A DNA stretch of 64,000 nucleotides from Atractiella rhizophila (lineage: Eukaryota): NCBI GenBank assembly GCA_021432655.1, contig MU271250.1, positions 1 to 64,000 on the forward strand, in the 5' to 3' direction. Position numbers and translations under genes: made by a program. This document shows positions 9,622 to 50,942 of the stretch, in pieces. The stretch's first letter is position 1. Each line of letters opens with the position of its first letter. Below the pieces are notes generated by a model. It was not told where the DNA came from, made no database searches, and was given only the letters and a program-made list of their open reading frames with translations.

Positions 9622-10914
9622 TCATCTGATTGGGTAACATTCTTTTTCGACGATTTGGTCGGCACTTTGCGCAAATTGTCGCTCTCGGTGCTTCATCTTT
9701 GAATCAAAATATTCTCCTTGAGCTCGGAGATACTGTTCTTTGTTCATGATCGTCCGACATTCTCTTTCCCAGTGGCCCATCTTTTGGCATCGTCTGCAAC
9801 AGGGAGGCCTAGATTTTGTCGCGTCAACCTCCATGTCGTCGGGGTCTTTGGCTCTGTGTGCGTGGGTAGCGGTGTTTGGTGATGAATTGGCGACCGTTGA
9901 CAAAGTGGCGCTCGGTCGATACGATACGGGTGTTCTGCTCTCTCTGTGTTTTGTTGGTCTTGAGCTGTTCTTTTTGGCACAAAACATATTCTGGGGTCCG
10001 TCCTTCGCTGATGGGATGTTTCGAAAGAAGGTTGAATGAGCAGATTCTTCTGCATCAATTCGTCGAGCCTTTTCTTTCCATTCTTCGAGCGATTTTGGGA
10101 ACTCTCCTTGGGTTACTTTGAGATGTAGGGTAGGATTGAGTCCTCGTTTGAAGAAGAAAGTAAGAGCTTCATCACCAAAGTCAGCCTGATTTGCCAGTTC
10201 TTCAAACTTGATGATGTAGGTTTCTAGGTTCCCCTTTTGTTGGAGGGAAGATATTTTTGTTTGTACAATGAGTTTGTGGTCTGTCTTGCAGAAGCGCGAT
10301 TTGAACTCCGACAAAAATTGCTCCCACAAAATTTGTTCCTTGTTTTCGACAAGTCGGCGCAAAATCCCAGCGGCGAATTTTTCCGCATCTCCTTCTTTCA
10401 TGTAAGAAAGGGTAAATAGGATTTTCAAATTTTCGGTCGAAAATTGGCCTGGAACAGTAGACGTGTAGACGTAAATTTCGCGTAAAAATGTCGGAGCTGT
10501 GTTGGGTACTCCTTTGAAGATCGCGGGCGGGGCAAGTTTGATACCTGCATATGGTGCAACTTGGGCAGTTTGGGGTATAGAGGGAGAAGAGTAAGCTTGA
10601 GGTATTGGGTCCGTTCGCGATAAAAAGGGGGAAGTGGTTCCACTATCTCTAGGAGGGGGTAGTCTGAAATCTAGCAATTGTAAAATTAGGTCATTCGTGT
10701 TTTGGACGTCGGACCTCCGTTGCGCAATTTCGTTCACATTCTGGGAGGTTTGCGCATTTTGTTGGTTGAAACTTGTTATGATATCTTGTTCGAGTTTTCT
10801 GAATTGTTTTTCAGTAGTGAGATGTAGAGTTTGGAACATCCTTTCTAGGTGCTGGATACGTTCTTCGCTCGTCGGCGGTTTGCGCGTTTCCATGTCTCCC
10901 CAAACCTCCGACAT
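9622..10914 (-). CDS. Gypsy Gag with CCHC zinc knuckle
   Basis: 430-aa ORF containing CRRCQKMGHWEREC. A GGATTTTT possible slippery site lies at about 9605-9612, before pol. Confidence 0.88.
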   Translation of the reverse strand: MSEVWGDMETRKPPTSEERIQHLERMFQTLHLTTEKQFRKLEQDIITSFNQQNAQTSQNVNEIAQRRSDVQNTNDLILQLLDFRLPPPRDSGTTSPFLSRTDPIPQAYSSPSIPQTAQVAPYAGIKLAPPAIFKGVPNTAPTFLREIYVYTSTVPGQFSTENLKILFTLSYMKEGDAEKFAAGILRRLVENKEQILWEQFLSEFKSRFCKTDHKLIVQTKISSLQQKGNLETYIIKFEELANQADFGDEALTFFFKRGLNPTLHLKVTQGEFPKSLEEWKEKARRIDAEESAHSTFFRNIPSAKDGPQNMFCAKKNSSRPTKHRESRTPVSYRPSATLSTVANSSPNTATHAHRAKDPDDMEVDATKSRPPCCRRCQKMGHWERECRTIMNKEQYLRAQGEYFDSKMKHRERQFAQSADQIVEKECYPIR

Positions 10915-10942
10915 TTTTAAGTTTGATTTTTTGAAAGGGACG

Positions 10943-10952
10943 AGAGTATTCT
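10943..10952 (-). promoter_or_regulatory. Non-tRNA primer-binding site (self-priming type)
   Basis: AGAATACTCT, 2 nt after the LTR, is the exact complement of AGAGTATTCT at 11069-11078, which lies about 27 nt downstream of TATATA. Confidence 0.7.
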
Positions 10953-10954
10953 TC

Positions 10955-11445
10955 TGTTAGGGCTGACAGTATGTGCGGTCGCCGATGGGCGATGCGTCTG
11001 TAGTGGAGGTAAACCTAAGTGAATAGTATGGCATGAGAAGACTAACCTGTAGTGGAGGTAAACCTAAGAGAATACTCTGAGATTACCACCACTACATCTC
11101 GATGTATATATACCATATGTAAAGGCACTGCCATAAACTGTAACATACATTTCTTGAAAAATGTAAGATAGCTAGATCAGGAAAGCAATAAAGGGAATAC
11201 TCGGAAATAAGACATACTCAGCAGTACAAGTGAGAAAGGATAATAAGGCAATAATGGCGACGGTGCAGACCGGCGAAATGTATGAGGTTAGCTGAGCGGC
11301 GATTCGTGTGAGATGGGGGAAGGCGGCGGTCAGCGCAAACATGCGCAAAGCGGCGACAGGTAGGCACGTGATCCTACGACGTACTAAAGTAGGTCATGTG
11401 ACATCAAATGGTGCATTTCGGTAATGCGTAGGGGCAAGCCTGACA
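10955..11445 (-). repeat. Gypsy 5' LTR (491 bp, TG...CA)
   Basis: Sense strand TGTCAGGC...CCCTAACA. Homologous copies start at 23781, 28785, 33898, 34468 and 49355. Confidence 0.95.
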
Positions 11446-11472
11446 CATGCCTAACTATCCACCAAATCACAG

Positions 11473-14170
11473 ACAATACACTCGACCCCAACTTTCCCCA
11501 AGCTCTCCTAAGAAAAGCTGAAGCCGCACGACGAGACTCGGACTTGAACCCGAACGCTGCCACCACCGTTGTGGAAGAGATCAAGCTTGAGGCTGCGCTC
11601 ATGGACGATTCCCCTTATGTAGAAGTTACAAGGTATAGTAGGATCGTCCGTGTTGAGGACCACGCTCCTAACACGTTCAGGGTATGGTTCCTTGGCTTGC
11701 TATTCTCCACCATTGGAACGGCTAGGTTCTCTCCATATCTTCGTCCCTGTGGTGTAGGCTGTAGGACGAAGAGACTGACTGAGATGTAACGACAGGGATA
11801 AATGTTTTCTTCCAAGCCCGGTCGCCTAGTATTACCCTGTCAGTGTTCTGTGCCCAGGTGCTCTGTTACCCCTTCGCGAAGGCAATGGAGTGGGTTTTGC
11901 CAAGGAGACAGTTTAGAATGGTTTGGGTGGAAATGGAGTTTGAATCCGGGACTCTTCAATCAGAAGGAACGCATCCTCATCAGTTCTTCCTTCCTCACCT
12001 CTTCCCCATAGTCCAATGCTGACTTGGGGCGGAATAGCTATCATGGCCAAGGTAACGTTTGGGTGCATATGTGACCAACATCATCGTTGTTCAAGTCCGC
12101 TTCTCTCTTTCATTCTAGCTAATTGGGACTGACGCTGATTCTCGCACCACGACTTCCGAACTATTTTAACGACAAGGTCCTCGGAAGGGACGCACTCTAA
12201 CAAGTCCTACTTGTCGTTTCACTCAACTCCTCGGCTTCTCAGTCGCCGGCTTAACGAGACGCTCCCCTGTCTATCCCCAGCATGATCTGGCCCAACAATC
12301 TGGCCCAAATTGCCTTGAATAGGAGCTTTCATTTTGATAAGAATCTTCCGGCTAACGTGCGTGCTTCGTTTCACATGTCTGATCGCGAACGTGCCTGAAA
12401 GAGGATGTGTCGCTGATATCCATACGGTGAACAGGTATGGAGGATATCCAGACTGAGATTCTTCCTCATCGTCTTCATCAGATACGGTCTCTACTTTGTC
12501 TTTCCCAACAACCTCGTGCGTCGCCCTCTTCCTGTTCACCACATTCTACTTCCGTAGATCTAACCATCCAACGTCTGACAGTTCCAAGCTCTTTCGACTT
12601 TCAACTGGATCGTTTAGATAGCCCCCAACAACGTCAATGTCGCTGCCATCACCGGTTCCGCCTTCTACAGCGGGATGGGACTCAACCCATGGCCTATCTT
12701 CGACTGGAACCAGATCTCGGCACTCAACAACCCTCTCATCTCGCCCCTGTTCTCGACATGCAATCAAGTTGCGGGCATTCTCAGACTCGGGTTGGCGTTC
12801 ATACCTGCTGTTTAGTGCATTTCACTCCTTTTTTCTTGCCCGTAAATGGGATGGGGCTGATGTTGTGAGGTAGGTAATCAAACATCTGGCCGATGGGTTG
12901 TCTACCCCTGAACGATAATCACCTCTGGGACCGGAACGGACATCGATACTATGTGTCGAGGATCCTGACAAGCAAGCATACGCTCGACTAGGAGGCTTAC
13001 AACAATTATTATCCTGGTTCGTCTTTCTTGGCACCTCATCTAATTCCTGTCCTCTGTCTAATGGATGGCATAAAGCATATTGGGGAGTGGCTAACGCGCT
13101 CTTATACGGATTCTTCTTCGCCTTCTACACTGCTGGTCTCGTACATGCCGCCCTGTACCATTATAAGCCCATTATCGATGGGTTCCACGCGATGAAGAAG
13201 TGGAAGAACGCACAGAAGGGCTATAACGACCTTCACAACCGCTTGATGAGAAATTATGCCGATTGCGTCCACCTGCTCATTCTCTTTTATCTGATTTCTG
13301 AGTTGATGTTAATGGCAGGGTCCCAGTGTGGTGTATGTCTCTCTGTCTTGACCATATTTGTCAAACGCTCATTTGGTGTGTTAAATGGTCCGGTTGCATC
13401 ATGGTCATTTCCTTGACTTGCGGAATCATCATGGTCGAGAGTAAGCAACTCCTGCAACCGGCGAAGAGGTCGTGGTACTGAACAATGACAACAGTCTACA
13501 ATACCCCCAATTTGGGGATTTGTCATTTGCATTGCTCTCGCTTTCATCTTTGTCGTACCTGCTGGAATGATTACTGCTGTTGGAACCGTCCAAATCATAC
13601 TCAACGTCATTGGTGCGTCGTATCGTTATACGCTGTTTGAAGAAGCAGATTGATTGACTTTGTGGATCATAGCTGAACTGATCGGTGGCTATGCTCTTCC
13701 CGGAAAACCACTCGCCAACGTGCTCTTCAAATCCTATGGTCTTCTCGTCACGTCTCAAGCTATCACTTACGCATCCGACCTTAAGCTGGGGCACTATCTC
13801 AAGTTGTCTCCAAGGCATGTCTCTCCTGTAGCTCCATGAAATGGAACTGATGGAGGATCTTCTTGTGCAGACTGCAATTCTGGGCTCAAACGATTGCTAC
13901 CGTTTGGGCCGCTTTTGTTTCGTTAGGTGTCATCAAGTCTGTCCATTTCTTTCTGCGAAGAAAGCCGATCATTGACCTTGTAATACTTCTACACATCGAT
14001 AACTATGGTACACCAAACCAAAGCGCTCACTTCACTCACCCAGTGTACAATACCTTCTTCTCCGCCGCGTTATTTGGTCAGCAGACTTCTCTTACAACCT
14101 CGAGTACTAGCTGATGGTGAACACAGGGGCATTATTGGACTGGCAAAAATGTACTCTCAAGGGGCGTAAC
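11473..14170 (+). pseudogene. OPT-family oligopeptide transporter pseudogene, 5' part lost at the Gypsy LTR
   Basis: Motifs DDSPYVEV, NTFRVWFLG, WSLNPGLFNQKE, DWNQI and ELIGGYALPGKP...SDLKLGHYLKLSPR. Frameshifts, stops and deletions. The LTR abuts an intron 3' end (CTAAC...CAG). Confidence 0.88.
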
Positions 14171-17099
14171 GCCTTGACCTGGTTTTGCGACAAAATGCAT
14201 GCACGAGCAAGGTAAGCGTTCATCTCCCTCACCTAATATGCCTGTGCGTTATTGATGTTCTGCTGATAGTATGGTAATATTCGTATATCATGCTAATTCG
14301 ACCTCTCCTCTGTACCTCCACGCGTCTTCTGCATTCCCCTCCCATTCCCCTTCCAGATTCTCGGAGAACTCCTTGCAATCCTCGACAACTGCGCATTACC
14401 AGCTCCCAAGTCTTCCATCAATCCCACGTGCACAACTGGTCTTTCTGGACACTCACGCTTACACACACCAGCCGATTTCCCAGCTGTAGCACGATGGACG
14501 GGGCAACGTGTAGCTGGAATCGTTGAAGGCATGTGTCGGGACTTTGACACGCTATACACGATGGAGCACTTTCTGTCCTCTCCTCCAATCCTCTCCCTCT
14601 TCACACACTTCTCCAACCAACTCCCCAAAACTTCAGACATACAAAAAGCAACATCGCACATTCCCAGCACTGGAGGACACATGGCAAATCACACTTGCCG
14701 ACCTCGACCCAGAATACCACTCTTCCCTCCCCCTCTCTCCATCCTTCGATTCGACCTCCACGTCCAAACTCTCGATACCTCATCGCACGCGCCACGTGTA
14801 CCCACCATCAAACCCAGTTCTTACACCTAGTGGGATACGGCGTGATGTATTATTTGTACATCTTTGACCGTGCCATCGCTTCTAGACTTTTCATAAAACT
14901 TTTGATAACAATCCTTTGGACAGGGAGAATGGGGAAAGGTTCAAAGAAAGTGCTCAGGTAGGGGAGCGCAAGGGATCTGTGGAAGTTGGTCCCTGATGCT
15001 CTTGGGCCGAGAGAGGAGGCGGAGAGAGTTAGGAGCGGAGATGAGAAGGTGATGGAGGAGGTTTGAAGGTGGGGAGTGGAGTTGGCGAAGGCAAATAGCG
15101 TACAGCGTTGACTGCTAATGAGGTGTTTGCAAGGAGCAGCTAGAATGAAATTAAACAGAGATGGTATTTCAAAGACGGAGTACATATGAACAAAACCCTG
15201 GGCAGCATATGAGAGGCTTATGAATGAGTGGGCATGAATGAATCTAGGAGAAATATCGAAGAGCAACAACCAAGACAACTGAGGTAAGGAACAGATTACA
15301 GAGTGAAGTAAGGCTACGATTCGGTTTTCAGGGGAAAGAGACGGGCTAGGAAAGAGACAAACAACAAGAACAATAAGGGGGTGTATATGAATGTTTCGAG
15401 CGACAATTATCAACTTTGCATCTCCACTCTCTGCATCTGCTGAGCAAGTCCAGCGTCACAAGCCACAGCAGGCGACGTTGGCCAGAAGCTACCACTACCA
15501 CTTCCGCTCCTCTCATTCAAGCGTAATCTCACCTCTCCAGTTCCACTTTGACCTCCCATGCCATCCGAACTCCCACTGGATGAATGGAAGCATCTCAACA
15601 AGTCTTTACCCAAGAAGCTGAAGAGGCAGTTAAGACAACACTGGAAGAGGTGCTATCAATACTTCGTCACAAGCAATTAAGCGGCTCACTTGGAGGACAA
15701 AGTGCCTACTTATCTAAATGACATACATTGTATAGAGATACAAGTGAAAGATTTGCAGAAGATATTGGGCATAATGCACATCCCATGCAGTAAGACGGTG
15801 CAAAGTAATGATGTCACCTCTTCAAGTCTATTGTACAACCAATAGACACTCGCGTAACCTCTTTATCTCATCTTCTAACTGAGCTATATTCAGTTCCGCC
15901 TTTGTGATTTCAGCTTGGTTCGACTCAATCACTTTCTGAGTATTATAGAAAAGCTGATGATGCTTCAGTTGTTGTTCTAGATGGCCATGCTTCTTGCTGA
16001 TAAAATATTTCAGCAACAAGTAAGAGTTATAACTAAATCAAACCAAAATGCCATTATTTCCACTAACGAAAGTACTATGAAGGTTGCTCACTCAGTGGCC
16101 TCAAAACGTGCCCAGTCCGACTCAGCATTGACCATGCTGAGCTTATGATGTTTGTGCTCACCGATTCTACCCTTTGAAAGTCTATAATTGCCATCACTCT
16201 TCCAGAATTTCCTGTAGTCCTTGTTACATCCACATCTTCAGGTTCAGCTCCACTTCTTTCTTTCAATTTCCCATCACTGACTCCATCTGACGCACCCTTA
16301 AGATATGCAGGATAAGGCTTGCTGTTTCTGTCATAATCAGCTGCCAGGGTAATTGCATTGAGGAGTTCAGCATGAGGTGTGTCGTGATACTCCTTACAAT
16401 GTAGTGGTAGACAGTCCACACCCAATGTGTGGTCAAATGCGTCCAGGTGCAACATATTGCTGGCAAGGTGAGTGGTGAATACTGTGATAAACCCGTTGTC
16501 TCAAACTAGACATCTGATCGCTTGACTATCCCAGTGAGAGAACAAAGATAACAAAATCCTAGAAAACCTCTTACAGTTAAACGAATGATTGTTTCGCTAC
16601 TCTAACCTTCAGATTCGGGGTTAGCTTTGGCTTCAACACGTTTAGCTTGGCATTTATTCCAAAATGATGCCAATAAGTTGTAAATGGGATGAAAGGTCTT
16701 GATAGATGATACATTTGATATGGGTCGATAAAATGTCAGACATAGGATCATTGTAGAGTACCTACTTATTTCCAATAACATGCAGGAATGCATTCAACAC
16801 TCAACTGAGGGACAGCCTCACAGTATCATCATAGCTGAATGATACACCTGCGTCCCACACAGCTGAAGCAAAGTTAAAGGTTGTGTAAGAACAACATGCC
16901 ACCATTTGAAATCTGATCCTTTGGTTTCCAAAAGCAAGTTCATGGATAGACAGAAAGATGTGGGTGGGATGGAGACTGGAGAAGTCAAAATTAGGGCATC
17001 TGGGTTGATCGATTATTAATCATCATCATTTATACACATTAATCACCAACAGGATACCACTAGACCAAGGTCACACACTGAATAGAGAAAGCACATCAC

Positions 17100-23321: not shown

Positions 23322-24033
23322 TCATAATTCTGAGTGCCTCATCATCAAAGTCTGCCTGATTTGCCTACTCCTCAAACTTGATGATGTTGGACTCCAGGTT
23401 GCCCTTCTGTTGCAGGGAAGACAGTTTTGTTTGCGCAATAAGTTTGTGGTCAGTTTTGCAAAAACATGATCTGAACTCCGACAAAAATTGCTCCCACAAA
23501 ATCTCTTCCTCATTTCGACAAGTCGGCGCAGTATCCCAGCGGCGAATTTTTCAGTGTCTCCTTCTTTCATATACAATAGAGTAAATAAAATTTTTGACTT
23601 TTCTGAAGGGAACTGTCACGAGGTCTTGTTTGATTTTTTTGAACCGCTTTTCGGTTGTGTAGAGTTTGGAACATTCTTTCTAAGTGCAAGATGCATTCTT
23701 TGCTCGTCGGCAGTTCATGCATTTCCATATCTCCTCAAACCTCCGACATTTTTTTCTGAAAAGTAAAGGGAGTATTCTTCTGTTAGGGCTGACACTATGT
23801 GCGGTCGCCGATTGGCGATGCGTCTGTAGTGGAGGTAAACCTAAGTGAATAGTATGGCATGAGAAGACTAACCTGTAGTGGAGGTAAACCTAAGTGAATA
23901 GTATGGCATGAGAAGACTAACCTGTAGTGGAGGTAAACCTAAGAGAATACTCTGAGGTCACCACCACTACATCTCGATGTATATATACATATGTAAGGGC
24001 ACTGCCATAAACTGTAACATATGTTGCTTGAAA
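23322..24033 (-). mobile_element. Gypsy fragment: truncated LTR (23781-24033), PBS and internally deleted gag
   Basis: High similarity to 10150-11160. YMKEGDTEKFAAGILRRLVE. The LTR has three 22-nt repeats, at 23824, 23873 and 23922. Confidence 0.9.
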
Positions 24034-28560: not shown

Positions 28561-29116
28561 TGCCTCCGGCAGCCAAGCACAGACCCATCATACATACTCT
28601 ACTGTGTTCAAAAAACAATGAAAGCTGAGTGGTCTCCAAGGTACGAGGAGAACCACTTCAGCTTTTGACTATATATACTGTTAGGAACATGCTGAGAGAT
28701 AATCAGTGATTGAGTACTCATAACACTTCCTTGTAAACTACATTATCTGTTTGCTTTCTTCTCCTTGCTTTGTTTTGACCAATATGTCAGGCTTGCCCTA
28801 CACATTACCGAAATACACCATCCGAAGTCACGTGATCCACTTTACCACGTCATGGCATCACGTGCCTCCCAATCGCTGCTTTGCTGCCTGCGCTGTTCGC
28901 CGCTTTCCCCTTTCTCACACGAATCGCCGCTCAGCAAACCTTATACATTTCTCCGGTCTGCGCCGTCTCCATTTTCGCCTTATTGTCCTTTCTCACTGGT
29001 ACTACCCAGTATATCCTATTTCCGAGTATTCCCTTTATTGCTTTCCGGATCTAGCTATCTTATGTGTTTCAAGAAACATATGTTACAGTTTATGGCAGTG
29101 CCTTTACATATGTATA

Positions 29117-29399
29117 TCCTATACTCTAAGGTTCATCAGTTCTTGACATGAGTCATAAGACACACTTTTGAGCCCTCACACCTCCCTCACCATACACAAT
29201 AGAATGAAATGTATTGTATCATCATATCCCACATGCTTGCCCCTTTCTGAACCTGCAAGGAAATTTTATTCTGAAAGGGTTGAAAAATGTGTTTTGTACT
29301 GGACTCGAACCCTTACAACGGTCACAGTAGGGTTCAAGGGGCCATGCCCCTTGCGAGTGGGTTGGGGGGCCTGAGGGACAAAGGCTGTTCACACACTTG
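29117..29399 (+). mobile_element. Non-autonomous mini-Helitron (283 bp)
   Basis: Inserted between A and T of the LTR TATA with no TSD, and removing it restores CATATGTATATATACATC. It has 5' TC, 3' CTTG (a CTRR variant) and GC-rich hairpins near the 3' end. Confidence 0.7.
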
Positions 29400-29486
29400 T
29401 ATACATCAAGATGTAGTGGTGGTGACCTCAGAGTATTCTCTTAGGTTTACCTCCACTACAGGTTAGTCTTCTCATGCCATACTATT

Positions 29487-29775
29487 TGTGAGAGAGGGAC
29501 ATACCACATGACTCCGTTTTACTTTGTCATTTTCCTTCCCTTCGCTCGTTTCTCTCGCTTTGTTCATGTTCATTCCCTTCGCTCGTTCCTCTCGTTTCGT
29601 TTCCCTCTCTCTTTCTTGATCTCCACTCTTCGGCACGTGTACATAGGGTTAGGACCATCGCCAACCTGATTCCCCAGCGTTTCCACCATCTCATTTCGCT
29701 GGGGATCAGGTACGTAGCTTCATTTCATGTCATTGAGCGTTTCCACCATCTCATTTCGCTGGGGATCAGCTCACA
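29487..29775 (+). mobile_element. Copia-type solo LTR (289 bp)
   Basis: TGTGAG...CTCACA ends and TSD CTATT. The 3' part matches the LTR of the Copia fragment at 26290. Confidence 0.88.
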
Positions 29776-30879
29776 CTATTCACTTAGGTTTACCTCCACT
29801 ACAGACGCATTGCCCATCGGCGACCGCACATAGTGTTTGCCCTAACACAATACTTGTAAATTGTTCGCATTTGAAACCCGTGAAAGACCAATATAAAGCT
29901 GCCCATGAGAGAAAGGAGAAGACTCTAAGTACAAACTTACATGTCCAACAGATTGTCCTTGTACTTTATTCAGAGTTAAGGCAAATGCTAAGGGCACAGG
30001 GAAGTGAAAGCACCAGAATTGAAAAGGAAGCTGGTTTGATACTGCACTGTCAATGCTGATTCGAGGAATGAGAACCGATTCGCTGTGCGCACCTGTAACG
30101 ATGGTTGCTTCAATGACTCGCCAGAGAAGCTGAGTGACAATGAACCATGTGCCATTGCACTGGCCAGCAGATGGATTGAGATTTCGCAGAAGAATGATGG
30201 GTACACTGGTCTTGAGGTGTAAGCAATACGAAGAGAATCCAGAGATCTCCGGGGTATTCAGGTACTCGACAGAGAAGCGATTTCTAAGATCTTCCTCGTC
30301 ATCTATAATTTGATCTGCACTATAATATACCGGATCTCCTGTGGATTCAGGCCACTGAATCAAGTGATCATTGATGCCATCCATATCCACATTCTTTGCT
30401 GCTGGAATCATGCGAACCTGGAAGTATTCTTGAAGGAAGCTCAGAGCAGGGATATTTTGCAGAGAATCTAGTTGGCCGTAAATTGAGCACAACAGACCAT
30501 CTAGTCCTTCGTGGGATGGAATAATAGACCCATCTGGTATCTTTAAGGTTCCACATCCATTGTCTGATGGATTATTAGCGAGACCATTTCCAACATTAAG
30601 GAGCCACTGGGCAAATCTGGTTACATGCTGAAATTTGGCTGGTGTCAATTCCTGTTGGCCTTGAAGAAGGCACATATTGGTTTTCAAAGGCAGGACTTGA
30701 ACATTCGGCCAGAAGTTAGAATTAATGGGCATCTTCAATCTGTGGTCAGGTTCCATTTGGAACTACCGGAAGACATTGTCTGCCATCTCCTGTGAACAGT
30801 ATGTTAATAAAGAACTACTTAAAGGGAAGTATCGTACCACAGAAAACCATGGGTGCTCCTCCAAATGGTCTTGAATCCT

Positions 30880-32419: not shown

Positions 32420-33545
32420 GTCAGTGAGAGCCTCACGACTGGGCTGACCTCACCCTGGCCCTGACCCTAACTCCATTCCCCAGCCAAATTTGACTGATGA
32501 AACAGTTCTGTCATGAAGGAATAGTAGTAGAAAGGCCACACAAAGCCAGAGCAGTTTATATACCTTCTCCCCCTGCCATATGGGGCCAGGCCATCACTTA
32601 TGCTGCTTAGTAGAAGCTCCTCACAGTCATTCAGCTAAGTTTTCAGCCATAAATCAATGTAGTGGAGCAGTGTGGACACCCCACAAGGCAGGAGCTCCAC
32701 CTGTTAGCCTGGCAATCAATTAAAATCATCACATCATCCACTTAAGACCAGGACAGCCGCTGATGAAATGATGCAAAAAAATAGTCATCCCACAGCATTT
32801 TGCCATCGAAAAGCAACGGAAAAGATGCCTCAGGACTCTCCATGACTGCCCTGATTCATCCAGAGCATCCCTATTTAGCACAAAGAGCATATGATGTGTT
32901 GCCGCCTTATCTTGAGGAACAGGGAAATGCAGGAGAGACACCCCATAGAGGGGGTGCCAGGACCCCTTGAGCGACCAAAAAGGCGCCACAAATACCACAT
33001 TCCACCCTATTTCCTTCCACATAAGGACTCAACATTGCAATGAATAGCAAAAAACACAAGAAAGAACCTCAGCCTATGCTGAAGCGCAGATAATAACTTT
33101 GCATGATGCAATGGGCAATCCCCATCGATTCCATCACTTATAAACCACTTAGAGCGCCTCCCAAAGAGCCCTTACCATCACCGGAACTGAAGAAGCCTTA
33201 GGGAAACAGGATCTAGCCAGTCTTGTCTTCTGGTGGAACCCCTCATCTCACACCCCACTATCGCTCCTCGCCTCTTGCTGCTAGCTATTTACTGTTGGAA
33301 GTGTCTGAGATAAACATATCAAGAAGGGAGAAGCTACGCTGTGAGTGTGTCGTCTTTGGTTCGCTTTGGAGTCCCACTTTGTTGGACTCTGATGATTCTG
33401 TCCTCTCCTGTTGATGTTGGTCCCACCTTCATCCCTAACCCAGTCAGAGCCTCATGACTAGGCTAACAGGATCCTGGCCCTGACCCTAACTCCATTCCCC
33501 AGTCAAATTTGACTGACGGAACAGTTCCATCGCAAAGGAATAGGA
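32420..33545. repeat. Diverged ~105-bp direct repeat (about 32420-32523 and 33441-33543)
   Basis: Both copies share CCTGGCCCTGACCCTAACTCCATTCCCCAGYCAAATTTGACTGA. Confidence 0.65.
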
Positions 33546-33897
33546 TGTCCCCCGCAAAGCGGGACTACAAAAGCCTCTACTTTGATCCAAGGCCTTTCAG
33601 AGGTTTGTGTTTTCGGGTAAGGTTCACATCTGGGAGGGCGAGGCCATGCATGGGTCTCATGTTGGCCTCGCTGGATTCTGGTATACGTTTAAGGGTTTAG
33701 CCGCCTAAGGGGCCACAAAGTGCAGACCCAAAGTGTTCCCTATCAGTTCACACGAAGCGAAATTTGGGATGGGGCGAGATTAACATGTTATAGCTAGTTC
33801 CTGTACAAAAGTGATTATTTTGCAAAAAGGGTGAATTTTGCATGTTGCAGACGCATAATAGTTATTTCGCGACAAGGGTGCACTTTGCAGGTCACAG

Positions 33898-34343
33898 TGT
33901 TAGGGCTGACACTATGTGCGGTCGCCGACGGACGATGCATCTGTAGTGGAGATAAACCTAAGAGCATGATATGACATGAAGACTAACCTGTAGTGGACAT
34001 AAACCTAAACTCTGAGGTCACCTCCACTACTCTCTGATCTATATATACAAGCGGAATAACACTGCCACAGAGCATAGAGGAGAGCAGATGAAACATGTAA
34101 GAGAACTAAAAGGGGAAGTGACAGTGGGATTACGTGGAGTTAATAAGAGGAGGATAGGCACAATTGGGCTAAGTGGTGATGTAGGTGCAAATGGGCGATG
34201 GGAGATGCAGAGTGGTGACGGTTCGCAGATTTGTATAGAATGCAAATGGGCGAACAGGCACCGATTCATGGGGAACGCAAATGGGCGATAGAAGATGCAA
34301 TCCGGCGAACGGGCGCTGATTTGCATAAGATGCAAACCTGACA
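33898..34343 (-). mobile_element. Gypsy solo LTR, divergent subfamily (shared R/U5, different U3)
   Basis: TG...CA ends and TSD CACAG. U3 contains TGCAAATGGGCGA repeats. Confidence 0.9.
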
Positions 34344-34467
34344 CACAGTCAGCTGCTCACCCGAAGTGGTAATTTCGCACCTGGAGGGCATTTCGCAAGT
34401 TGTGGCCTGTTGCTGATCCAAACTGTTTATTTTGTGACGGGACGTGCACTTCGCAAGTTGGAGCCTA

Positions 34468-34956
34468 TGTTAGGGCTGACACTATGTGCGGTCGCCAATA
34501 GGCGATGCGTCTGTAGTGGAGGTAAACCTAAGTGAATAGTATGGCATGAGGAGACTAACCTGTAGTGGAGGTAAACCTAAGAGAATACTCTGAGGTCACC
34601 ACCACTACATCTCGATGTATATATACATATGTAAGGGCACTGCCATAAACTGTAACATACGTTTCTTGAAACATGTAAGATAGCTAGATCAGGAAAGCAA
34701 CAAAGGAAATACTCGGAATTAAGGCATACTGAGCAGTACAAGTGAGAAAGGACAATAAAGCAATAATAGAGACGGTGCAGACCGGCGAAATGTGTAAGGT
34801 TTGCTGAGCGGCGATTCATGTGAGATAGGGAAAGCGGCGATCAGCGCGAACGTGAGCAAAGCGGCGATGGGGAGGCACGTGATCCTTCGACGTGATGAAA
34901 TAGGTCACGTGACTTCAAATGGTGCGTTTCGATAATGCGTAGGGGCAAGCCTGACA
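34468..34956 (-). mobile_element. Gypsy solo LTR (489 bp)
   Basis: TG...CA ends and TSD GCCTA. Collinear with 10955-11445. Confidence 0.95.
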
Positions 34957-39618: not shown

Positions 39619-42600
39619 ATGAGCAAAATCCCCAATCCGGCAGCCTCCGGAGGACACGATGTCGTCCGCTCCGCCCTCGATGCCTGTAGTACGGCACTTC
39701 GATATGCCACGTCAATCTCATGTGTTGCCCCTGTTCCCGGACTCTCTGCCGGTCTCGGCGCTCTACAGACGCTGGTTACTCAACTTCAGGTAGAGTCTTC
39801 TGTTCCTGCTTCGATGATAATTTAGCGAGTTTGTTCACCGCGACATCTTGTTTCGCAGACAATGAAGGACAATAACGAAAGACGGGACGTCTTTGTCCGT
39901 CATATCGCGCAACTGGTACAACTGATATCAAACTCAATTCAAGAGATCGAGAGAGACTCGAAACTGCAATTTTCCCCGAGTCTTTCGAAAGCTATGGACG
40001 AACTTACACAGTGAGTGCTATCGTGGGTTCAAAACCTTGATTTATACTTATGTGTCTTAACCCATTAGGGACGTTAACGCAATGATCGCGGACGTAGAAA
40101 AGATGAAACGTCAAGGAGCAGCCAAGCGGTTTTGCAAATCAAGTCAGAACGCCGCAAAATTGACTGAGCTGACGGGGAGAATTAACCATGCAATGAGTAG
40201 ATTTAGCGTAAGCAAAAGCTCTCGCCCAGCTTTATATAAAACACATCTCATTAACTCTGAATATCTAGGTTCGGGGAAGTATCACTGTGGAAGCACATGT
40301 GCTCGCTATAGCAGAGAGACAGATTACTCAGCGTAAGGATGATTTGACGCACAATACGAGAAATCCCTGACTGATCAAATTCTTATTACAGTTGAGAAAG
40401 AGAACGAATGGCGCCAACAGGAGGCTGTTCGGCGAAAACAAAAGGAAGAAGAAAAGCATCGAAAGCATGAAGAAGAAATCTTACAGAAACTACCTCAGGA
40501 GGAAGTTGGGTACCGGTCGGCCCTCAATATTGTCACCCACGGGGTTCATCCAGCTACCCGAATAGAAGTACTGCAAAAGGTATCTGGCTGGGCCGATTCC
40601 ATCGACGCCATCGAAAAGATGTACATCCTCACCGGTGCCTTTGGTACTGGCAAATCCGCCATCGCCTACACCGTCGCCGAAACCCTCGAAAATCAAAACA
40701 AACTAGGAGGTTCTTACTTCTTCTGCAGGGACAATGTTGGGTCCTTGAATATCCAGAACTTCGTTGGACCGATCGCCCGCCAGCTTGCCAACTCGATCCC
40801 AGCCGTACGCCACCACATCGTTGAAGCCATAGAAGAACGCAAAAGCGCTGGTCCATTCACCCTTGCTGAAGACTTCAGGCATCTCATTATCGAACCCCTT
40901 TCCAAAGTTTCCGGGTATCAAACTCCGGTAATTATTGTTGTGGATGCGCTCGACGAATGCCCCGAACGTGAAGGGGTAAAGGAACTCTTCCAACTCATTT
41001 CTGCTTCGCTACCTAAACTGAACTTTCCTCTCAAGTTCTTCCTCACCGGACGTCCAGAGTCCCACCGTGACTTTACGGAGCTAAGCTCTTGTATCCTTCA
41101 CGAGCTGAAGAAGGAAGTTGTGGATATGGACATTCGGACTGTCTTAGTCGATGGTCTTGAAAAGGTCGCCATCGAGAACAAGTGTGCCGGGATGGAGCAC
41201 CCTCCTACGACGATCAATAACCTCGTCAATAAAGCTCAAGGTCTTTTCATTTTCATCGATACTTTGATCAGGCATCTGTTGGAAGATGACCCTATTCCAT
41301 GGGAGACAAAGCTCCAAGAAATATTGGAGTTGCCAAGTGAAGATGGTTCACAAATAGATCTTCTCGATGGTCTGTACCACAAAGTTCTCTCCGCCGTGCT
41401 AGATTGCTCAAAGTCCCAGAAGATCCAAGACAGGAATCGCAACATCATTCTTCAAGTTCTTGGCTTCGTCATCATGCTTTACGAACCCCTCTCCCCGACA
41501 TCGCTGGCCCATCTCATCTCATACGACACACCCAAGACGATGCAAACGGCCAAGAACGTGAGGCTTGTCCTTCATCGTCTTAGCTCCGTCATTCTCGTCC
41601 CCAAGGAGAACCACGACCTCATTCGTACTCTTCATGCATCCTTCGTCAATTACATTACCGATCCTACGCGGTGTTCCGACTCCAAGTTATTTGTCGACCC
41701 AGCGCTTTATCATATTCGAATTGCATCTTCGTGCTTGGACTTCCTTCACGATAACCTAAAGCGCAATATCTTAAACCTTCCTGATCCCTGCATCCTCAAC
41801 TCTGAAATTCCCAACCTCCCCGACCTCATCCACCAACTTATCCCTCCTCACCTTCAATACGCCTGTACACATGGCCTATCGCATCTCGCGAATATCACCA
41901 ATCCTTCCCCCGAACTGCTCAAAAAGGTTTCCAAGTTTGCCGAAGAACACGTTATACACTTTTTGGAAGTCATGAGCCTACTGAAAAGGGTTGGCATCGC
42001 TGTCCGGGTTCTTGGGACTGTACTCAAGTGGTACCAGGTGAGAGCTGTGCCAAACGAACCGCACACTTCGTCGATACTGATCATCCATTTTTGCACCACA
42101 GAACCTTGTCACGGAGGGAGACTCTCGAGTTACCTCGCTCCTATCTGACAGCTGCCGCTTTGTGGGTCGTTTCTCCGAGGTGATCAGTGCCTCCGCAGGT
42201 CATATCTACCTCTCAGCTTTAACCCTATCCCCGGAGTGTACCCTTCGTACGACCTACTTGACTCCTCCTTGGGGTTCAGTCAAAGTAGTTCGTGGACGGG
42301 AGGAGTCATGGGACGCTTGCTGGAACAACGTTGTTAAAGGAGCTCCATGCACCGCATTAACCTATTCACCCGACTCCATCAAGATCGCCGCAGGCTCCGA
42401 CGATCAGACAGTCAGGATATGGGATGCAGCCACCGGTAAGCAGCTTCATGTTCTCCGTGGCCATTCCGGATGGGTCCGCGCCGTTGCGTTCTCTGCAGAC
42501 GGACAGCAGGTTGCCTCTGGCGCTTCCGATTCTGCAATCCGTATATGGGATACAGAGAAGGGCCAGTGTCTAAACGTCCTTCGGGGACATACGGGCTGGG

Positions 42601-44306
42601 TCCACACCGTCGCCTTCTCTCCCAACGGGGAGTTCATCGTTTCGGGGTCGCAAGATCATACGGTGAGGATCTGGAATGCGACTACAGGAGAACAACTCAA
42701 AGTCCTCCAAGGCCATACCGACTATCTTCGTGCCGTAACTTTCTCTCCAGACGGAGCACGAGTCGCCTCCGGCGCCTCCGATATGACGGTCAGAATCTGG
42801 GATGTACCGACAGGAGAACAACTAACCGTCCTCCAATGCCAATCCGACTTCATTCGCGCAATATGCTTCTCGAACGATGGAACCAAAGTCGCCCTCGCTT
42901 CTGATGACAAGACAGTCCAAGTCTGGAACGTTTCCACCCAAGAACAACTTCATGTCCTTCGTGGCCATTCAGATGCCGTTCGCGGTGTATGCTTCTCTCC
43001 CAACGGAGATAAGATTGTCTCTGGAGCTGACGATAAGACGGTCCGCGTGTGGGATGTAGCCACGGGCGAGCAGCTCAAACTCATCTCAGGCCATACTGGC
43101 TGGATTCATGCCGTCGCCTACTCGCCCGACGGAGCCACAATTACATCGAGTTCGGAAGACCAGACCATTAAGACCTGGGACGCCCTCACCGGCCAGCATC
43201 TCAAGACCCTCGAAAGCGACTCCGAACTTCTTTCCACTTATGCAACGAAGGATATCCCCAAACCCTCTGACCCTCCATCACAAGCACCCGAGGTCGCCGT
43301 GAAACCACAACCCAACGCCCTCCAAGGACACTCGGACTTCGTTCGAGCCGTATCCTTCTCCCCCGATGGATCCAAGGTGGCGACAGGTTCTTTCGATTCT
43401 ACGGTCAGAATCTGGGATGCTGTCACCGGGGACCAACTGAGCATTCTTCGCGGACATACGAATTTCGTTCGCGCGGTACGGTTCTCGCCAGATGGAACGA
43501 AGGTGGGATCTGGCTCCGACGACAAGACAGCGCGTATCTGGGATATTGCCACCGGAGAGTATCTTGAGCTCAAAGATCACGAAAACGACGTTCGCGCCGT
43601 AGCCTTTTCTCCTAATGGATGGAAGTTTGCTACAGGTTCAGACGACAAGACGATCCGCATCTGGAACGTTGTCGAGGGGAAGCTGCTTGTAACCCTTTCC
43701 GGTCATACTGGTTGGGTTCAGGCAGTATCGTTCTCTCCCGACGGAGCAAGGCTGGCGTCGGGGTCCTCGGACTTGACCCTCCGGATATGGGATTTAAAGA
43801 CCGAAGAATGCCTCAATGTTCTCCAAGGGCACTCTGGCTGGATCCTCGCGGTAAGCTTCTCTCCGAAAGGAGACGTCGTTGCTTCCGGATCTTCCGACAA
43901 GACGGTACGCCTGTGGGATGCTGCGACGGGAAAAGGACTCAAGGTTCTTCAAGGTCACACCCATTGGCTCTCCACCTTATCCTTCTCCGCCGAAGGATCT
44001 ACGCTGACTTCCGAAGATACGGGTGGTCATACCATCCGATGGAATGTGGAGCATGGTATTGAAGTGACGGAAGATAACCGAAAACTCATTCAGCCTTCAC
44101 CTCACGTTTCCCTAAATAACTCTCTTCTCTTTTGTTCGCTGAAAAGTGATGGACCCGACGGTACCTTTGCTATTCGATCTCACTCTAGTCAACTCCTTTT
44201 CCTCCTTCCTCCCTCGGTTCATCGGGTATCTCATTCTATTTCTCTGGACCATAGTACTCTTGCCGTTGGATCCCGCTCAGGGCAACTATACATATTTTGT
44301 ATTTAA
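39619..44306 (+). CDS. Intact fungal NLR: MLKL/HeLo-like helical N-terminus, NACHT and WD40 (HET-E/NWD-like)
   Basis: Five GT-AG introns splice in frame. P-loop GAFGTGKS, Walker B IIVVDALDEC, FFLTGRPE, LHASF, and 13 clear WD repeats. Confidence 0.92.
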
Positions 44307-49354: not shown

Positions 49355-50942
49355 TGTCAGGCTTGCCCCTACGTATTACCGAAATGCACCATCTGAAGTC
49401 ACATGACCCACTCTACCACAGCATGGCATCACGTGCCTACCTGTCACCGCTTTGCTCATACCCACGCTGTCCGCCGCTTTCCCCTTTCTCATACGAATCG
49501 CCGCTCAACAAACCTTATACATTTCGCTGGTCTGCACCATCCCCATTTTCGCCTTATCATCCTTTCTCACTAGTACTGCTCAGTATATCTTATTTCCGAG
49601 TATTCCCTTTATTGCTTTCCTGTTCTAGTTATCTTACATGTTCAAGAAACATACATTACAGTTTATGGCAGTGCCTTTACATATGTATATATACATCAAG
49701 ATGTAGTGATGGTGACCTTAGAGTATTCTCTTAGGTTTACCTCCACTACAGACGCATCGCCCATCAGCGACTGCACATAGTGACAGCCCTAACAGAAGAA
49801 TTCTCTTTCTCCTTTTCAAAATCAAACTTAAAAATGTTGGAGGTTTGGGGAGATATGGAAATGCGCGAACTGCCAACAAGTGAAGAACGCATCCATCACT
49901 TGGAAAAGATGTTCAAGACCTCATAACAAGTTTCAACCAACAAAATATGCCAACCTCCCAGAATGCGAACGAGATTGCGCAACTGAGGTCCGACGTTCAA
50001 AACATAAACGACCGAATTTTACATTTACTGGACTCCAGACTACCCCCTCCTAGGGACAGTGGAACCACTTCCCCCTTTATATCACGAACAGACCCAATAC
50101 CTCAAACTTACTCTCCCCATCTATACCTCAAACTGCCCAAGCAGCACCATATGCAGGTATCACACTTGCTCCACCTTCAATCTTCAAAGGAGTGCCTAAC
50201 ACAGCTCTGACATTTTTATGGGAAATTTACGTCTACACCTCTACTGTTCTAGGCCAATTCCCGACCAAAAAATCAAAAATCCTATTTACCCTCTCTTACA
50301 TGAAAGAAGGCAATGCGGAAAATTTCCCCGCTGGGATTTTGCGCCGGCTTGTCAAAAACAAGGAACAAATTTCGTGGGAACAATTGTTGTCGGAGTTCAA
50401 TCACACTTCTGCAAAACAGACCACAAACTTATTGCACAGACGAAACTGTCTTCCCTCCAGCAAAAGGGAATCCTAGAATCCTACATCATCAAGTTTGAAG
50501 AATTGGCAAACCAGACTGACTTTGATGATGAGGCTCTTATTTTCTTCTAGAAACGAGGACTCAATCCTGCCCTACATCTTAAAGTAACCCAAGGAGAGTT
50601 CCCGAAATCGCTAGAAGAATGGAAAGAAAAACCTCAGCAAATTGATGCGGAAGAATCTGCACATTCAACCTTCTTTCAAAACATCCCACTGGTGAAAGAC
50701 GGGCCCCAAAATACGTTTTCCGCAAAGAGAGACAGCTCGAAATTGACAAAACACAGAGAGAGCAGAACACCCATATTGTATCGACCAAGTGCCGCTTTGC
50801 CGCCAATGGCCAATCCGTCACCAAACGTTGCTACACACTCACAGAGCCAAAGACCCTGATGACATGGAAGGTGATGCAACAAAATCTAGACCCCCCCATT
50901 GCAGGCCATGCCAAAAGATGGGACACCGGGAAAGAGATTGTC
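49355..50942 (+). mobile_element. Gypsy fragment: LTR (49355-49794), decayed PBS and frameshifted gag
   Basis: Same family as 9622-11445. This LTR has only one 22-nt repeat (49730-49751). Confidence 0.92.

Follow-up and report, generated by a model that had tools for sequence, protein, structure and literature searches.

An intron-like direct repeat beside the putative self-primer in the LTR of a chromovirus from Atractiella rhizophila

The element and the anatomy of its LTR

The window, as we call the whole 64,000-nt stretch of DNA analysed (contig MU271250.1 of assembly GCA_021432655.1, Atractiella rhizophila), carries on its minus strand a degenerate LTR retrotransposon whose 5′ LTR occupies positions 10955..11445. 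Pfam matches run from 10914 to 5976 on that strand in the order Retrotrans_gag/Ty3_capsid/zf-CCHC, RVP_2, RVT_1, RT_RNaseH, Integrase_H2C2, SH3_Tf2-1 and Chromo, which is the gag-protease-RT-RNase H-integrase order, with a C-terminal chromodomain, of Ty3/Gypsy chromoviruses. The gag ORF, identified through Pfam, encodes 430 aa (9622..10914, minus strand), and a broken pol then continues to about 5976. Because the frame of this reference element is broken into at least six ORFs, the copy is dead. The LTR family has the TG..CA ends and 5-bp target duplications of Ty3/Gypsy LTRs, and the SH3_Tf2-1 match is the sole pointer to a placement in the Tf1/sushi clade. Judged from its sequence, the element is a Ty3/Gypsy chromovirus with Tf1-like self-priming anatomy, and a neighbouring gene points to a host in or near A. 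rhizophila, an atractiellomycete.

The 5′ LTR, delimited by a blastn comparison of the region with the window and by the contexts of its ends (TGTCAGG...CCCTAACA), is 491 nt long. An earlier note on this DNA had described, in this order, a TATA motif, an arm, a primer segment, a first repeat, a unit beginning with GTTAGT, a second repeat and U5, and all of these are present on the minus strand where the note had placed them. The putative TATA box, TATATATA (11105..11112), was read directly; it lies about 26-27 nt upstream of the primer segment and is kept in 5/5 window copies that reach that far. It is followed by the arm TGTAGTGGTGGTAA (about 11083..11097), the inverted complement of the 3′ part of the 22-nt repeat described below, which would belong to U3 were the primer segment the start of transcription. 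The self-primer segment, AGAGTATTCT (11069..11078), is exactly complementary to the primer-binding site (PBS), AGAATACTCT (10943..10952), which begins 2 nt past the LTR end and does not open with the TGG of a tRNA-type PBS.

Directly 3′ of the primer segment stands the 22-nt repeat CTTAGGTTTACCTCCACTACAG (11047..11068, hereafter Rep1), followed by a 27-nt spacer, GTTAGT...TTCA (11020..11046), and by Rep2 (10998..11019), which ends in CAG; these three were likewise read directly. Rep2 is identical to Rep1, so that spacer and Rep2 together form a 49-nt unit (10998-11046) that begins with GT, ends with AG and, as the note had claimed, duplicates in its last 22 nt the segment that precedes it, placing the repeats 49 nt apart. 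The rest of R/U5 (10955..10997) reaches the LTR end, CTAACA, at 10955 and contains a small stem-loop, in which TCGCC (10992-10988) pairs with GGCGA (10983-10979) in all leader folds. The 10-mer TCCACTACAG occurs 12 times in the window, always within copies of this LTR, where shuffles lead one to expect 0.11 occurrences, and the repeat is therefore more than chance.

Several observations bear on the priming of this element. First, the segment 11078-11069 has an exact 10-nt complement that starts 2 nt beyond the LTR end, a length reached by 8 of 2000 shuffles; the corresponding complement measures 9 nt in a second copy (23781..24033; 19/2000 shuffles reach it) and 10 nt with one mismatch in a third (49355..49794). 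Second, the primer:PBS duplex appears in the minimum-energy folds of leaders with one, two and three repeats (z = -2.3 to -2.7). Finally, the PBS is complementary to a segment of the element's own LTR and not to a tRNA 3′ end, as in Tf1/sushi self-priming, and the anatomy fits the definition of Tf1-type self-priming given in the available portions of PMC7175516, PMC4600332 and PMC6317226. The spacing of about 26-27 nt after TATATATA suggests that AGAGTATTCT is the very 5′ end of the mRNA, and from the predicted duplex we infer that the element primes itself. The note's reading of a Gypsy LTR with a self-primer segment complementary to its PBS is thus supported by Pfam domains, complementarity and folds.

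The arm is predicted to form a second structure with Rep1, a hairpin of -25.4 kcal/mol (z = -5.33) that none of 200 shuffles equals in stability. Its partner in the longer fold is Rep1, not Rep2. The hairpin ends 1 nt from the GTTAGT donor and exists only where U3 is transcribed.

Repeat number and variation among copies

The six LTR copies of the window carry 1, 2, 2, 2, 2 and 3 Reps, differing by whole units with precise borders in the manner of LTR tandem repeats, and GTTAGT is kept in 6/6 units. The second copy (23781..24033, minus strand) is a 5′ LTR with three Reps, that is, two identical 49-nt units, and the third (49355..49794, plus strand) is a 5′ LTR with a single Rep, from which the unit is precisely absent; PBS and gag lie next to each. 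Both are truncated and are 76-81% identical to the reference over their matches. Two solo LTRs have two Reps each. One (34468..34956, minus strand), assigned by repeat count and end contexts, has the target duplication TAGGC, and the other (28782..29850, plus strand), found by blastn and end contexts, has the target duplication CAATA and carries in its spacer an inserted TG..CA element of ~288 nt (29487-29774, duplication CTATT). The last copy is a partial LTR of a divergent subfamily (33898..34048, minus strand), in which two Reps stand 47 nt apart, GTTAGT and CAG are kept, and the same C-to-T change (the TTTAT variant) is present in both Reps. The two-Rep form therefore accounts for 4/6 window copies and is found in both subfamilies. 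The downstream flanks of the LTR at 34468 resemble those of the copy at 33898, and both were considered as 5′ LTRs of another element; this was rejected for the LTR at 34468, as it has a 5-bp target duplication of its own. An nhmmer profile of three R-U5 copies detected no others in the window.

The 27 nt before Rep1 match the 27-nt spacer at 14/27 positions in register (shuffle p = 0.0025), and 14 matches are reached by only 4 of the other 463 LTR registers, the in-register one included. This fits a degenerate duplication of the whole 49-nt unit.

Variation was also read from contigs of two sequencing runs of one sample, both guessed to be DNA, of which 1055 and 695 contigs were aligned; contig depths are values per contig and are not read here as copy numbers. 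No variant at 5% or above occurs in GTTAGT or CAG, in the 9 nt after the donor, or at 21 of the 22 positions of each Rep, and the variable sites (11020, 11022, 11025, 11026 and 11031) are clustered in the 3′ part of the spacer. The note had named, among the outcomes that would refute its model, a GT/AG conserved no better than neighbouring bases; in the contigs the signals and their neighbours are alike free of variants at 5% or above. The C-to-T change of the divergent copy is found at both 11058 (43 contigs) and 11009 (42 contigs), both counts for X1 and over contigs reaching at least 38 nt past the site. All six of the long gap-free bridging contigs listed, three per run and from the one sample, have the two-Rep form. 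Among the joints of the 1750 contigs no 49-nt skip is listed, a weak null result given that contigs drop rare variants, and the window's own one-Rep copy is likewise absent from contig joints.

Intron-like features of the 49-nt unit

The donor context CAG|GTTAGT falls exactly at the repeat boundary, and the end of the unit provides a CAG acceptor; a second GT..AG phase lies within the repeat (CTTAG|GTTTAC), and its deletion product is identical and again 49 nt shorter. Ten host introns were inspected, 7 of them delimited by script in a neighbouring OPT gene and 3 read by eye, one of these in its 3′ part only, and 4 of the 11 OPT exon junctions, for which there was no GT/GC..AG solution, were omitted from the intron table. 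The 7 delimited introns measure 44-78 nt, a range that includes the 49 nt of the unit. Host donors read GTTCTT, GTGCGT (twice), GCATGT, GTCAGC, GTAAGC, GTGCAC, GTTCGT and GTAAGT, and GTTAGT fits among them. In borders and in length the unit is thus of the host type, and the strong donor and typical intron size that the note had seen in it are both real. With its in-frame stops, the OPT copy is possibly a pseudogene.

The branch site is another matter. A TGAY motif is present in 9/10 host introns inspected, whereas a search of the unit for a host branch site (CTGAY, TTGAY or CTAAY; TGAY) returned none. The sole yTnAy candidates in the unit are CTCAT, 13 nt from the donor, TTCAC, and TTTAC inside Rep2. 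TTCAC, which the note had taken as branch-like, is there in the reference copy, but base 11020, its A, is mostly T on the sense strand in the DNA contigs, making the motif a minority variant. A single ATG (11034-11032) precedes the gag ATG in the 164-nt leader; it falls within the spacer and starts a uORF of 25 codons, and no upstream ATG is present in the one-Rep leader. Such a position would be understandable were the spacer taken out ahead of translation. Splicing from the donor to a site beyond the PBS was considered as well and rejected, there being no usable AG between the LTR end and the gag ATG. At the DNA level splicing and repeat deletion are inseparable because both yield the exact one-repeat LTR seen at 49720-49794. 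The indirect evidence from branch site, GT/AG conservation and repeat number leans against an efficient intron.

The note had gone further and proposed that the unit is an intron in the LTR that is spliced at the 5′ end of the RNA, retained at the 3′ end and rebuilt in every cycle, a proposal that we consider unlikely. Retention may be brought about by the U3 arm hairpin occluding Rep1 and the donor, or by cleavage near Rep2, and strong-stop cDNA that ends in the complement of Rep may land on the 3′ Rep2, so that spacer and Rep1 are copied anew and both new LTRs regain the intron, which would be a spliceosomal one inside R. Under this model, removal of the self-primer immediately before Rep would leave the cDNA ending in the complement of the 22-nt exon end. 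Donor, length and acceptor fit such an intron, and the intron closes with a second copy of the exon end, the first of which stands immediately 3′ of the putative cleavage site of the self-primer, as regeneration requires. The strong hairpin adjoining the donor in RNA that includes U3 suits the proposed retention. Under the model every cycle should derive both Reps from Rep1, and the concerted C/T variant agrees with this; the model also places the leader's sole upstream ATG within the removed segment and has the one-Rep and three-Rep copies as expected by-products. In the portions of the literature available, introns raise mRNA accumulation in several basidiomycete species (PMC3744415), and engineered split-intron retroviral vectors rebuild an intron via LTR duplication (PMC3182074).

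Several observations stand against regeneration. First, the unit is without a host-type branch site, which leaves only the three yTnAy candidates listed above. Second, GT/AG is conserved no better in the DNA contigs than its neighbours. Third, short fungal introns are intron-defined, and the identical 3′ copy would be spliced too unless it were protected, the protection being hypothetical. Finally, template switching on a direct repeat also yields every DNA observation. We know of no natural example of a self-regenerating LTR intron, and none was found in the literature by title or abstract. Were the unit spliced and rebuilt, it would explain how a retroelement keeps an intron in fungi that need introns for expression, and it would be a natural counterpart of the split-intron retroviral vectors, through a mechanism of which no description was found in the literature.

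It is also improbable that the unit is a weak or cryptic intron with no regenerating role, spliced in a minority of transcripts while unspliced RNA is reverse-transcribed. Splicing of this kind may make the RNA a target of surveillance or a source of small RNAs, or may strip the uORF from a translated subset. The pairing of a good donor and acceptor with a poor branch site is what one expects of a suboptimal intron, the upstream ATG lies inside the unit, and both a Tf2 cryptic intron and SCANR targeting of poorly spliced transposon RNAs in Cryptococcus are described in the available portions of PMC7175516. However, such an intron leaves the need for Rep2 to equal Rep1 unexplained and adds nothing at the DNA level beyond template switching.

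Repeat number and strand transfer

We favour, with a probability of about 0.6, the reading of the unit as a tandem duplication in R, next to the self-primer, that is left unspliced, varies in copy number, and is changed in size and kept uniform in strand transfer. Transcription would probably begin at AGAGTATTCT, downstream of the putative TATA box, and this segment would fold back on the complementary PBS and then be cut off as primer. The 22-nt Rep that follows it would become the 3′ end of minus-strand strong-stop DNA and thus the homology for the first strand transfer. With two Reps in R, errors of register are possible: a transfer or template switch that is out of register would delete a unit, giving one Rep, or add one, giving three, and the same events would hold the Rep copies to one sequence. 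In retroviral LTRs, direct repeats of 50-75 bp differ in copy number, and their deletion by template switching is frequent and precise (PMC3187697, available portions).

The one-Rep state is unable to regain the spacer, and the persistence of two Reps in spite of this suggests that the unit matters to the element. The two-Rep form would be ancestral to the window subfamilies and probably kept because the unit carries a cis signal, candidates being an acceptor site that stays accessible when Rep1 is taken up by the U3 arm hairpin, or a signal for 3′-end formation. To this extent the unit's function is named only loosely. If the unit is such a duplication, a donor at the exact repeat boundary, a host-like size and a terminal CAG would coincide only by luck or through descent from the GTAGT of the arm. 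The leader's sole upstream ATG sits in the spacer and none is found in the one-Rep leader, which also runs against a simple repeat.

The number of repeats could also have changed once the copies sat in the chromosome, through replication slippage or through unequal recombination involving the 22-nt repeats, leaving the unit as a neutral relic. The copies with one Rep and with three are indeed old 5′ LTRs that have been truncated, and the timing of the change is not readable in the window because no element there has both its LTRs; the explanation is nonetheless doubtful, since the concerted change of the Reps between subfamilies needs homogenisation in a replicating lineage, not in dead copies, and the two-Rep form outlasted subfamily divergence though the one-Rep state is irreversible.

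Several known systems can be set beside this element. It shares with Tf1/Tf2 (Schizosaccharomyces pombe), Tj1 (S. japonicus) and Tcn1 (Cryptococcus) the Ty3/Gypsy domain order, a chromodomain and a Tf2-1-type SH3 domain; a PBS that is complementary to a short LTR segment at the expected mRNA start, in place of a tRNA-type PBS; and a small U5 stem-loop between primer and PBS. Unlike in those elements, the complementarity here is 10 nt and not 11, and priming is predicted from sequence. The 22 nt after the primer, repeated 49 nt downstream and inverted in U3, set it apart from the descriptions of those elements as far as these are available, and no mention of a post-primer repeat with an inverted U3 copy was found in the available literature on Tf1-type self-priming elements.

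The verified part of these findings is ordinary for the field: one more chromovirus with self-priming anatomy, whose LTR carries a variable direct repeat, here from an atractiellomycete. Two features deserve attention: the repeat lies exactly at what would be the homology for the first strand transfer, right after the self-primer, and both Reps and the inverted U3 copy stayed matched through subfamily divergence. The latter points to a cis function in strand transfer or 3′-end formation.

Tandem repeats in retroviral LTRs (PMC3187697, in the portions available) resemble the unit in being short direct repeats that vary in copy number, which here is 1, 2 or 3 with precise unit borders. They differ in being enhancer repeats in U3 upstream of the promoter, whereas the unit lies downstream of the putative TATA box, in the presumed R, and at the homology for first strand transfer, with just 22 of its 49 nt identical between units. 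In the split-intron vectors, LTR duplication during reverse transcription puts a donor 5′, and the intron comes into being only once a replication cycle is complete (PMC3182074, available portions), the same principle as in the note's model. Those vectors are man-made, however; their donor stands where U3 meets R, their acceptor lies downstream of the packaging signal, and they have neither a duplication of the exon end nor transfer onto a second repeat.

The Tf2 cryptic intron and the SCANR targets offer a further likeness, that of intron-like signals in fungal retrotransposon RNA, represented here by a good donor with a weak branch site; in the available portions of PMC7175516, the SCANR targets given by name are mainly DNA transposase transcripts, with no link to LTRs or strand transfer described there. 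Those cases were established with RNA data, whereas the unit is known from DNA alone. Ogre retrotransposons of legumes are LTR elements that keep a spliceosomal intron, between coding regions, through replication. That intron is internal to the element and lies outside the LTR; it persists since the RNA that serves as template is unspliced, and it is not known to involve a step of regeneration.

Relatives of the element are few in the searches made. In a metagenome scan the 28-letter DNA pattern of Rep and U5 gave 0 matches. A search with the gag protein returned a single weak match (27% identity), so that there are no close relatives for a comparison of LTR architecture, and the metagenome scan with the protein of the RNase H/integrase ORF returned a single fragment (L001, 2854 nt) at 42% identity.

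Layout and repeat number of the LTR

Read directly in the sense direction, the minus strand across 10955-11112 carries the features in the order that the earlier note had claimed. A TATA run (TATATATA, 11112-11105) is followed by an arm (TGTAGTGGTGGTAA, 11096-11083) that is the inverted complement of the 3' part of the repeat and presumably lies in U3, a primer segment (AGAGTATTCT, 11078-11069), a 22-nt repeat designated Rep1 (CTTAGGTTTACCTCCACTACAG, 11068-11047), a 27-nt spacer with GTTAGT at its start and TTCA at its end (11046-11020), a second repeat designated Rep2 (11019-10998), and a remaining 43 nt to the LTR end CTAACA at 10955. Spacer and Rep2 make up a 49-nt unit (10998-11046) with GT first and AG last, and its last 22 nt do duplicate the preceding segment, Rep2 being identical to Rep1. 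The duplication is more than a chance match: the last ten bases of Rep occur 12 times in the window, against 0.11 expected, all within copies of this LTR.

A blastn search of the region against the window set the LTR limits at 10955-11445 (491 nt; start TGTCAGG, end CCCTAACA) and found no 3' LTR for the element. Target duplications of 5 bp (TAGGC and CAATA) flank two other LTR copies. Downstream lies gag (9622-10914, minus), and beyond it on the same strand are fragments of protease, reverse transcriptase, RNase H, integrase, a Tf2-1-type SH3 domain and a chromodomain; judged by these predicted domains the element is a Ty3/Gypsy chromovirus, and its pol is broken.

A profile search of the window found no LTR copies beyond six. 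Two Reps are present in the 5' LTR at 10955-11445 and in the solo LTRs at 34468-34956 (target duplication TAGGC) and 28782-29850 (with a foreign 288-nt TG..CA element within the spacer). The truncated 5' LTR at 23781-24033 has three Reps, with two identical 49-nt units in tandem, and the 5' LTR at 49355-49794 has one, with primer segment, Rep and ACGCAT contiguous and the unit absent. The partial LTR at 33898-34048, from a divergent subfamily, has two Reps spaced 47 nt apart, with GTTAGT and CAG retained, and shows the same C-to-T change in both Reps (TTTAT for TTTAC). Since copies of both subfamilies have two Reps, the two-Rep form is ancestral to both and the one-Rep form derived. The two Reps of an LTR also change together.

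The only sequencing runs found for the region were two from a single sample, presumably DNA and possibly the sample behind the window assembly. Their contigs were compared with 10850-11250 at 80% likeness, and no copy numbers were drawn from depth. In each run, three long contigs span U5, Rep2, spacer, Rep1 and primer gap-free with 11 to 17 differing bases, and the two-Rep layout therefore exists in other copies too. Within the 71-nt Rep1-spacer-Rep2 segment, variants at 5% or more were listed at seven sites (11009, 11020, 11022, 11025, 11026, 11031 and 11058), the only ones in the Reps being 11058 (Rep1) and 11009 (Rep2). These occupy the equivalent Rep position, both change from G to A when read on the plus strand (in one run, X1, by 43 and 42 contigs), and the contigs that carry them extend well past the repeat, which at the sequence level confirms concerted change of both Reps.

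Self-priming anatomy and probable resizing at strand transfer

We favor, at a probability of roughly 60%, an unspliced tandem duplication of the R region that was resized during strand transfer. All of the DNA observations would follow from known reverse transcriptase behavior on direct repeats, namely precise unit loss, unit gain and repeat homogenization. Retroviral LTR repeats of 50-75 bp are described as varying in copy number, and deletion between direct repeats as frequent and precise (PMC3187697). The repeats studied here likewise vary in copy number but, unlike the retroviral ones, would themselves be the transfer homology, a place at which shifts of register are readily imagined.

The primer segment AGAGTATTCT is the exact complement of ten bases (10952-10943) beginning 2 nt past the LTR end, a match reached by 8/2000 shuffles of the downstream 25 nt. 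This complementarity to the primer-binding site (PBS) persists over 9 nt in a second 5' LTR copy (19/2000 shuffles) and over 10 nt with one mismatch in a third. A tRNA-type PBS was ruled out because the site does not start with TGG. The primer segment starts 27 nt after the TATA run and pairs with the PBS in minimum-energy folds of one-, two- and three-repeat leaders (z = -2.3 to -2.7), with a small U5 stem-loop between them. In Tf1, pairing of the first 11 bases with the PBS is reported, as is an RNase H cut after base 11; Tj1, Tcn1 and the Tf1/sushi group have been proposed to self-prime likewise (PMC7175516, PMC4600332, PMC6317226). The LTR described here resembles Tf1 in having a segment complementary to the PBS, the anatomy published for self-priming, known here from sequence. 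If priming is Tf1-like, Rep1 would be the first sequence after the primer cut, and its complement would form the 3' end of minus-strand strong-stop DNA, which would have to pair in the 3' R. Two Reps would then result from transfer in register, three if the complement of Rep1 lands on Rep2, and one after a jump from Rep2 to Rep1.

With U3 included, arm and Rep1 fold into a hairpin of -25.4 kcal/mol (z = -5.33, equalled by 0/200 shuffles) whose loop holds the primer segment and whose stem stops one base short of GTTAGT; in a longer fold the arm pairs with Rep1, not Rep2. The 27 nt before Rep1 (arm part and primer) agree in register with the 27-nt spacer at 14/27 positions (shuffle p = 0.0025), and agreement of at least 14 occurs in 4 of the other 463 LTR registers, the in-register one counted among them. 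If 11020 is given its majority base, both the spacer and the primer segment end in TATTCT. These similarities suggest, without establishing it, duplication of an entire 49-nt stretch (arm part, primer and Rep) of which only Rep remained identical. GTTAGT may thus descend from GTAGT of the arm, and the donor therefore weighs less as a coincidence. The two-Rep form persists although the one-Rep state cannot revert, and the unit therefore probably serves the element, possibly as a free acceptor site for strand transfer, in 3'-end formation or in expression.

The unit as a possible intron

The earlier note had proposed a self-regenerating intron, spliced out at the 5' end and rebuilt by transfer of strong-stop cDNA onto a retained Rep2. 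The model adds splicing to the same transfers and predicts the same DNA product; we consider it improbable. It is coherent, and it accounts for the exon end repeated at the intron end and for a U3 arm possibly shielding Rep1 and donor at the 3' end only. The sole upstream ATG of the 164-nt leader also speaks for it. This ATG is part of the spacer (11034-11032, minus) and starts a 25-codon uORF that runs to the TAA of the LTR end (10958, minus); the one-Rep leader has no ATG upstream of the gag ATG, and the three-Rep copy has two. Split-intron vectors are an engineered analogue (PMC3182074), and the model's premise, a frequent dependence of mRNA accumulation on introns in basidiomycetes, has been published (PMC3744415). 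The prior is nevertheless low, and no natural case appeared among the titles and abstracts listed by literature searches.

Host introns were delimited by joining homology-defined exons of an OPT transporter gene copy that contains in-frame stops (11 junctions, 7 solved and 4 without solution), and three more were read by eye in Zn2Cys6 and NACHT-WD40 genes. The seven solved in the OPT gene measure 44-78 nt; across the host introns donors are loose (GTGCGT, GTTCGT, GTAAGC, GTAAGT and others) and acceptors are CAG, TAG or AAG. The 49-nt unit fits them well in length, donor and acceptor, as the note had held for size and donor. Against the model, a branch motif is missing: TGAY precedes the acceptor in 9/10 host introns, mostly as CTGAT or CTGAC, and is absent from the unit. 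Candidates of the form yTnAy are limited, within the unit, to CTCAT (13 nt from the donor), TTTAC (inside Rep2 and 12 nt from the AG) and TTCAC. The last, pointed out earlier as branch-like, is present at 10955-11445 but is a minority variant, most contigs carrying a base at 11020 that makes it TTCTC. Nor did the contigs bear out special conservation of GT/AG relative to neighboring bases, as variants at 5% or more are absent from GTTAGT and CAG and equally from the nine bases after the donor. Contig joints, for which three rare forms were listed, included no 49-nt skip, a weak result since contigs drop rare variants. A weak cryptic intron with no regenerating role is slightly less probable still, and slippage after insertion is just as doubtful.

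Neighboring genes and insertions

Transposon fragments are nested throughout the window, whose content is fungal and includes the Zn2Cys6, NACHT-WD40 and OPT genes as well as a Copia element and part of a Pif1 helicase. The OPT oligopeptide-transporter gene (11466-14830, plus) begins about 20 nt away from 11445, where the LTR starts. At approximately 100% identity, its exons match a protein that NCBI assigns by name to Atractiella rhizophila, and the window therefore belongs to this species or to one very closely related. Homology of the gene to other OPT proteins crosses in-frame stop codons; it may be a pseudogene spliced around by an automatic model. At 40343-44306 (plus), two overlapping frames encode a NACHT/NPHP3_N ATPase domain and, after it, a long WD40 array; with at least one intron near 42081-42148, this is a fungal NLR-like gene. 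A Ty1/Copia pol (RVT_2, rve and a retroviral SH3-like domain) occupies 53213-55575 (minus), and 29842-30762 (minus) holds a fragment of a Pif1-type helicase that may derive from a Helitron.

Within the solo LTR at 28782-29850, the element interrupting the spacer (about 288 nt, 29487-29774, plus) has ends TGTGAG...CTCACA, a 5-bp duplication CTATT and the internal direct repeat GCGTTTCCACCATCTCATTTCGCTGGGGATCAG, present twice; it probably represents a solo LTR from a different family. About 280 nt unlike the reference LTR (29118-29399, plus) also break the U3 part of the LTR at 28782-29850. Flanks downstream of the copies at 33898 and 34468 (33530-33910 and 34100-34480, minus) are alike over about 130 nt and contain repeated TTGCGAAATGC-like motifs, although a separate target duplication belongs to the copy at 34468; either a repeated target that took nested insertions or a local tandem arrangement could explain the likeness.
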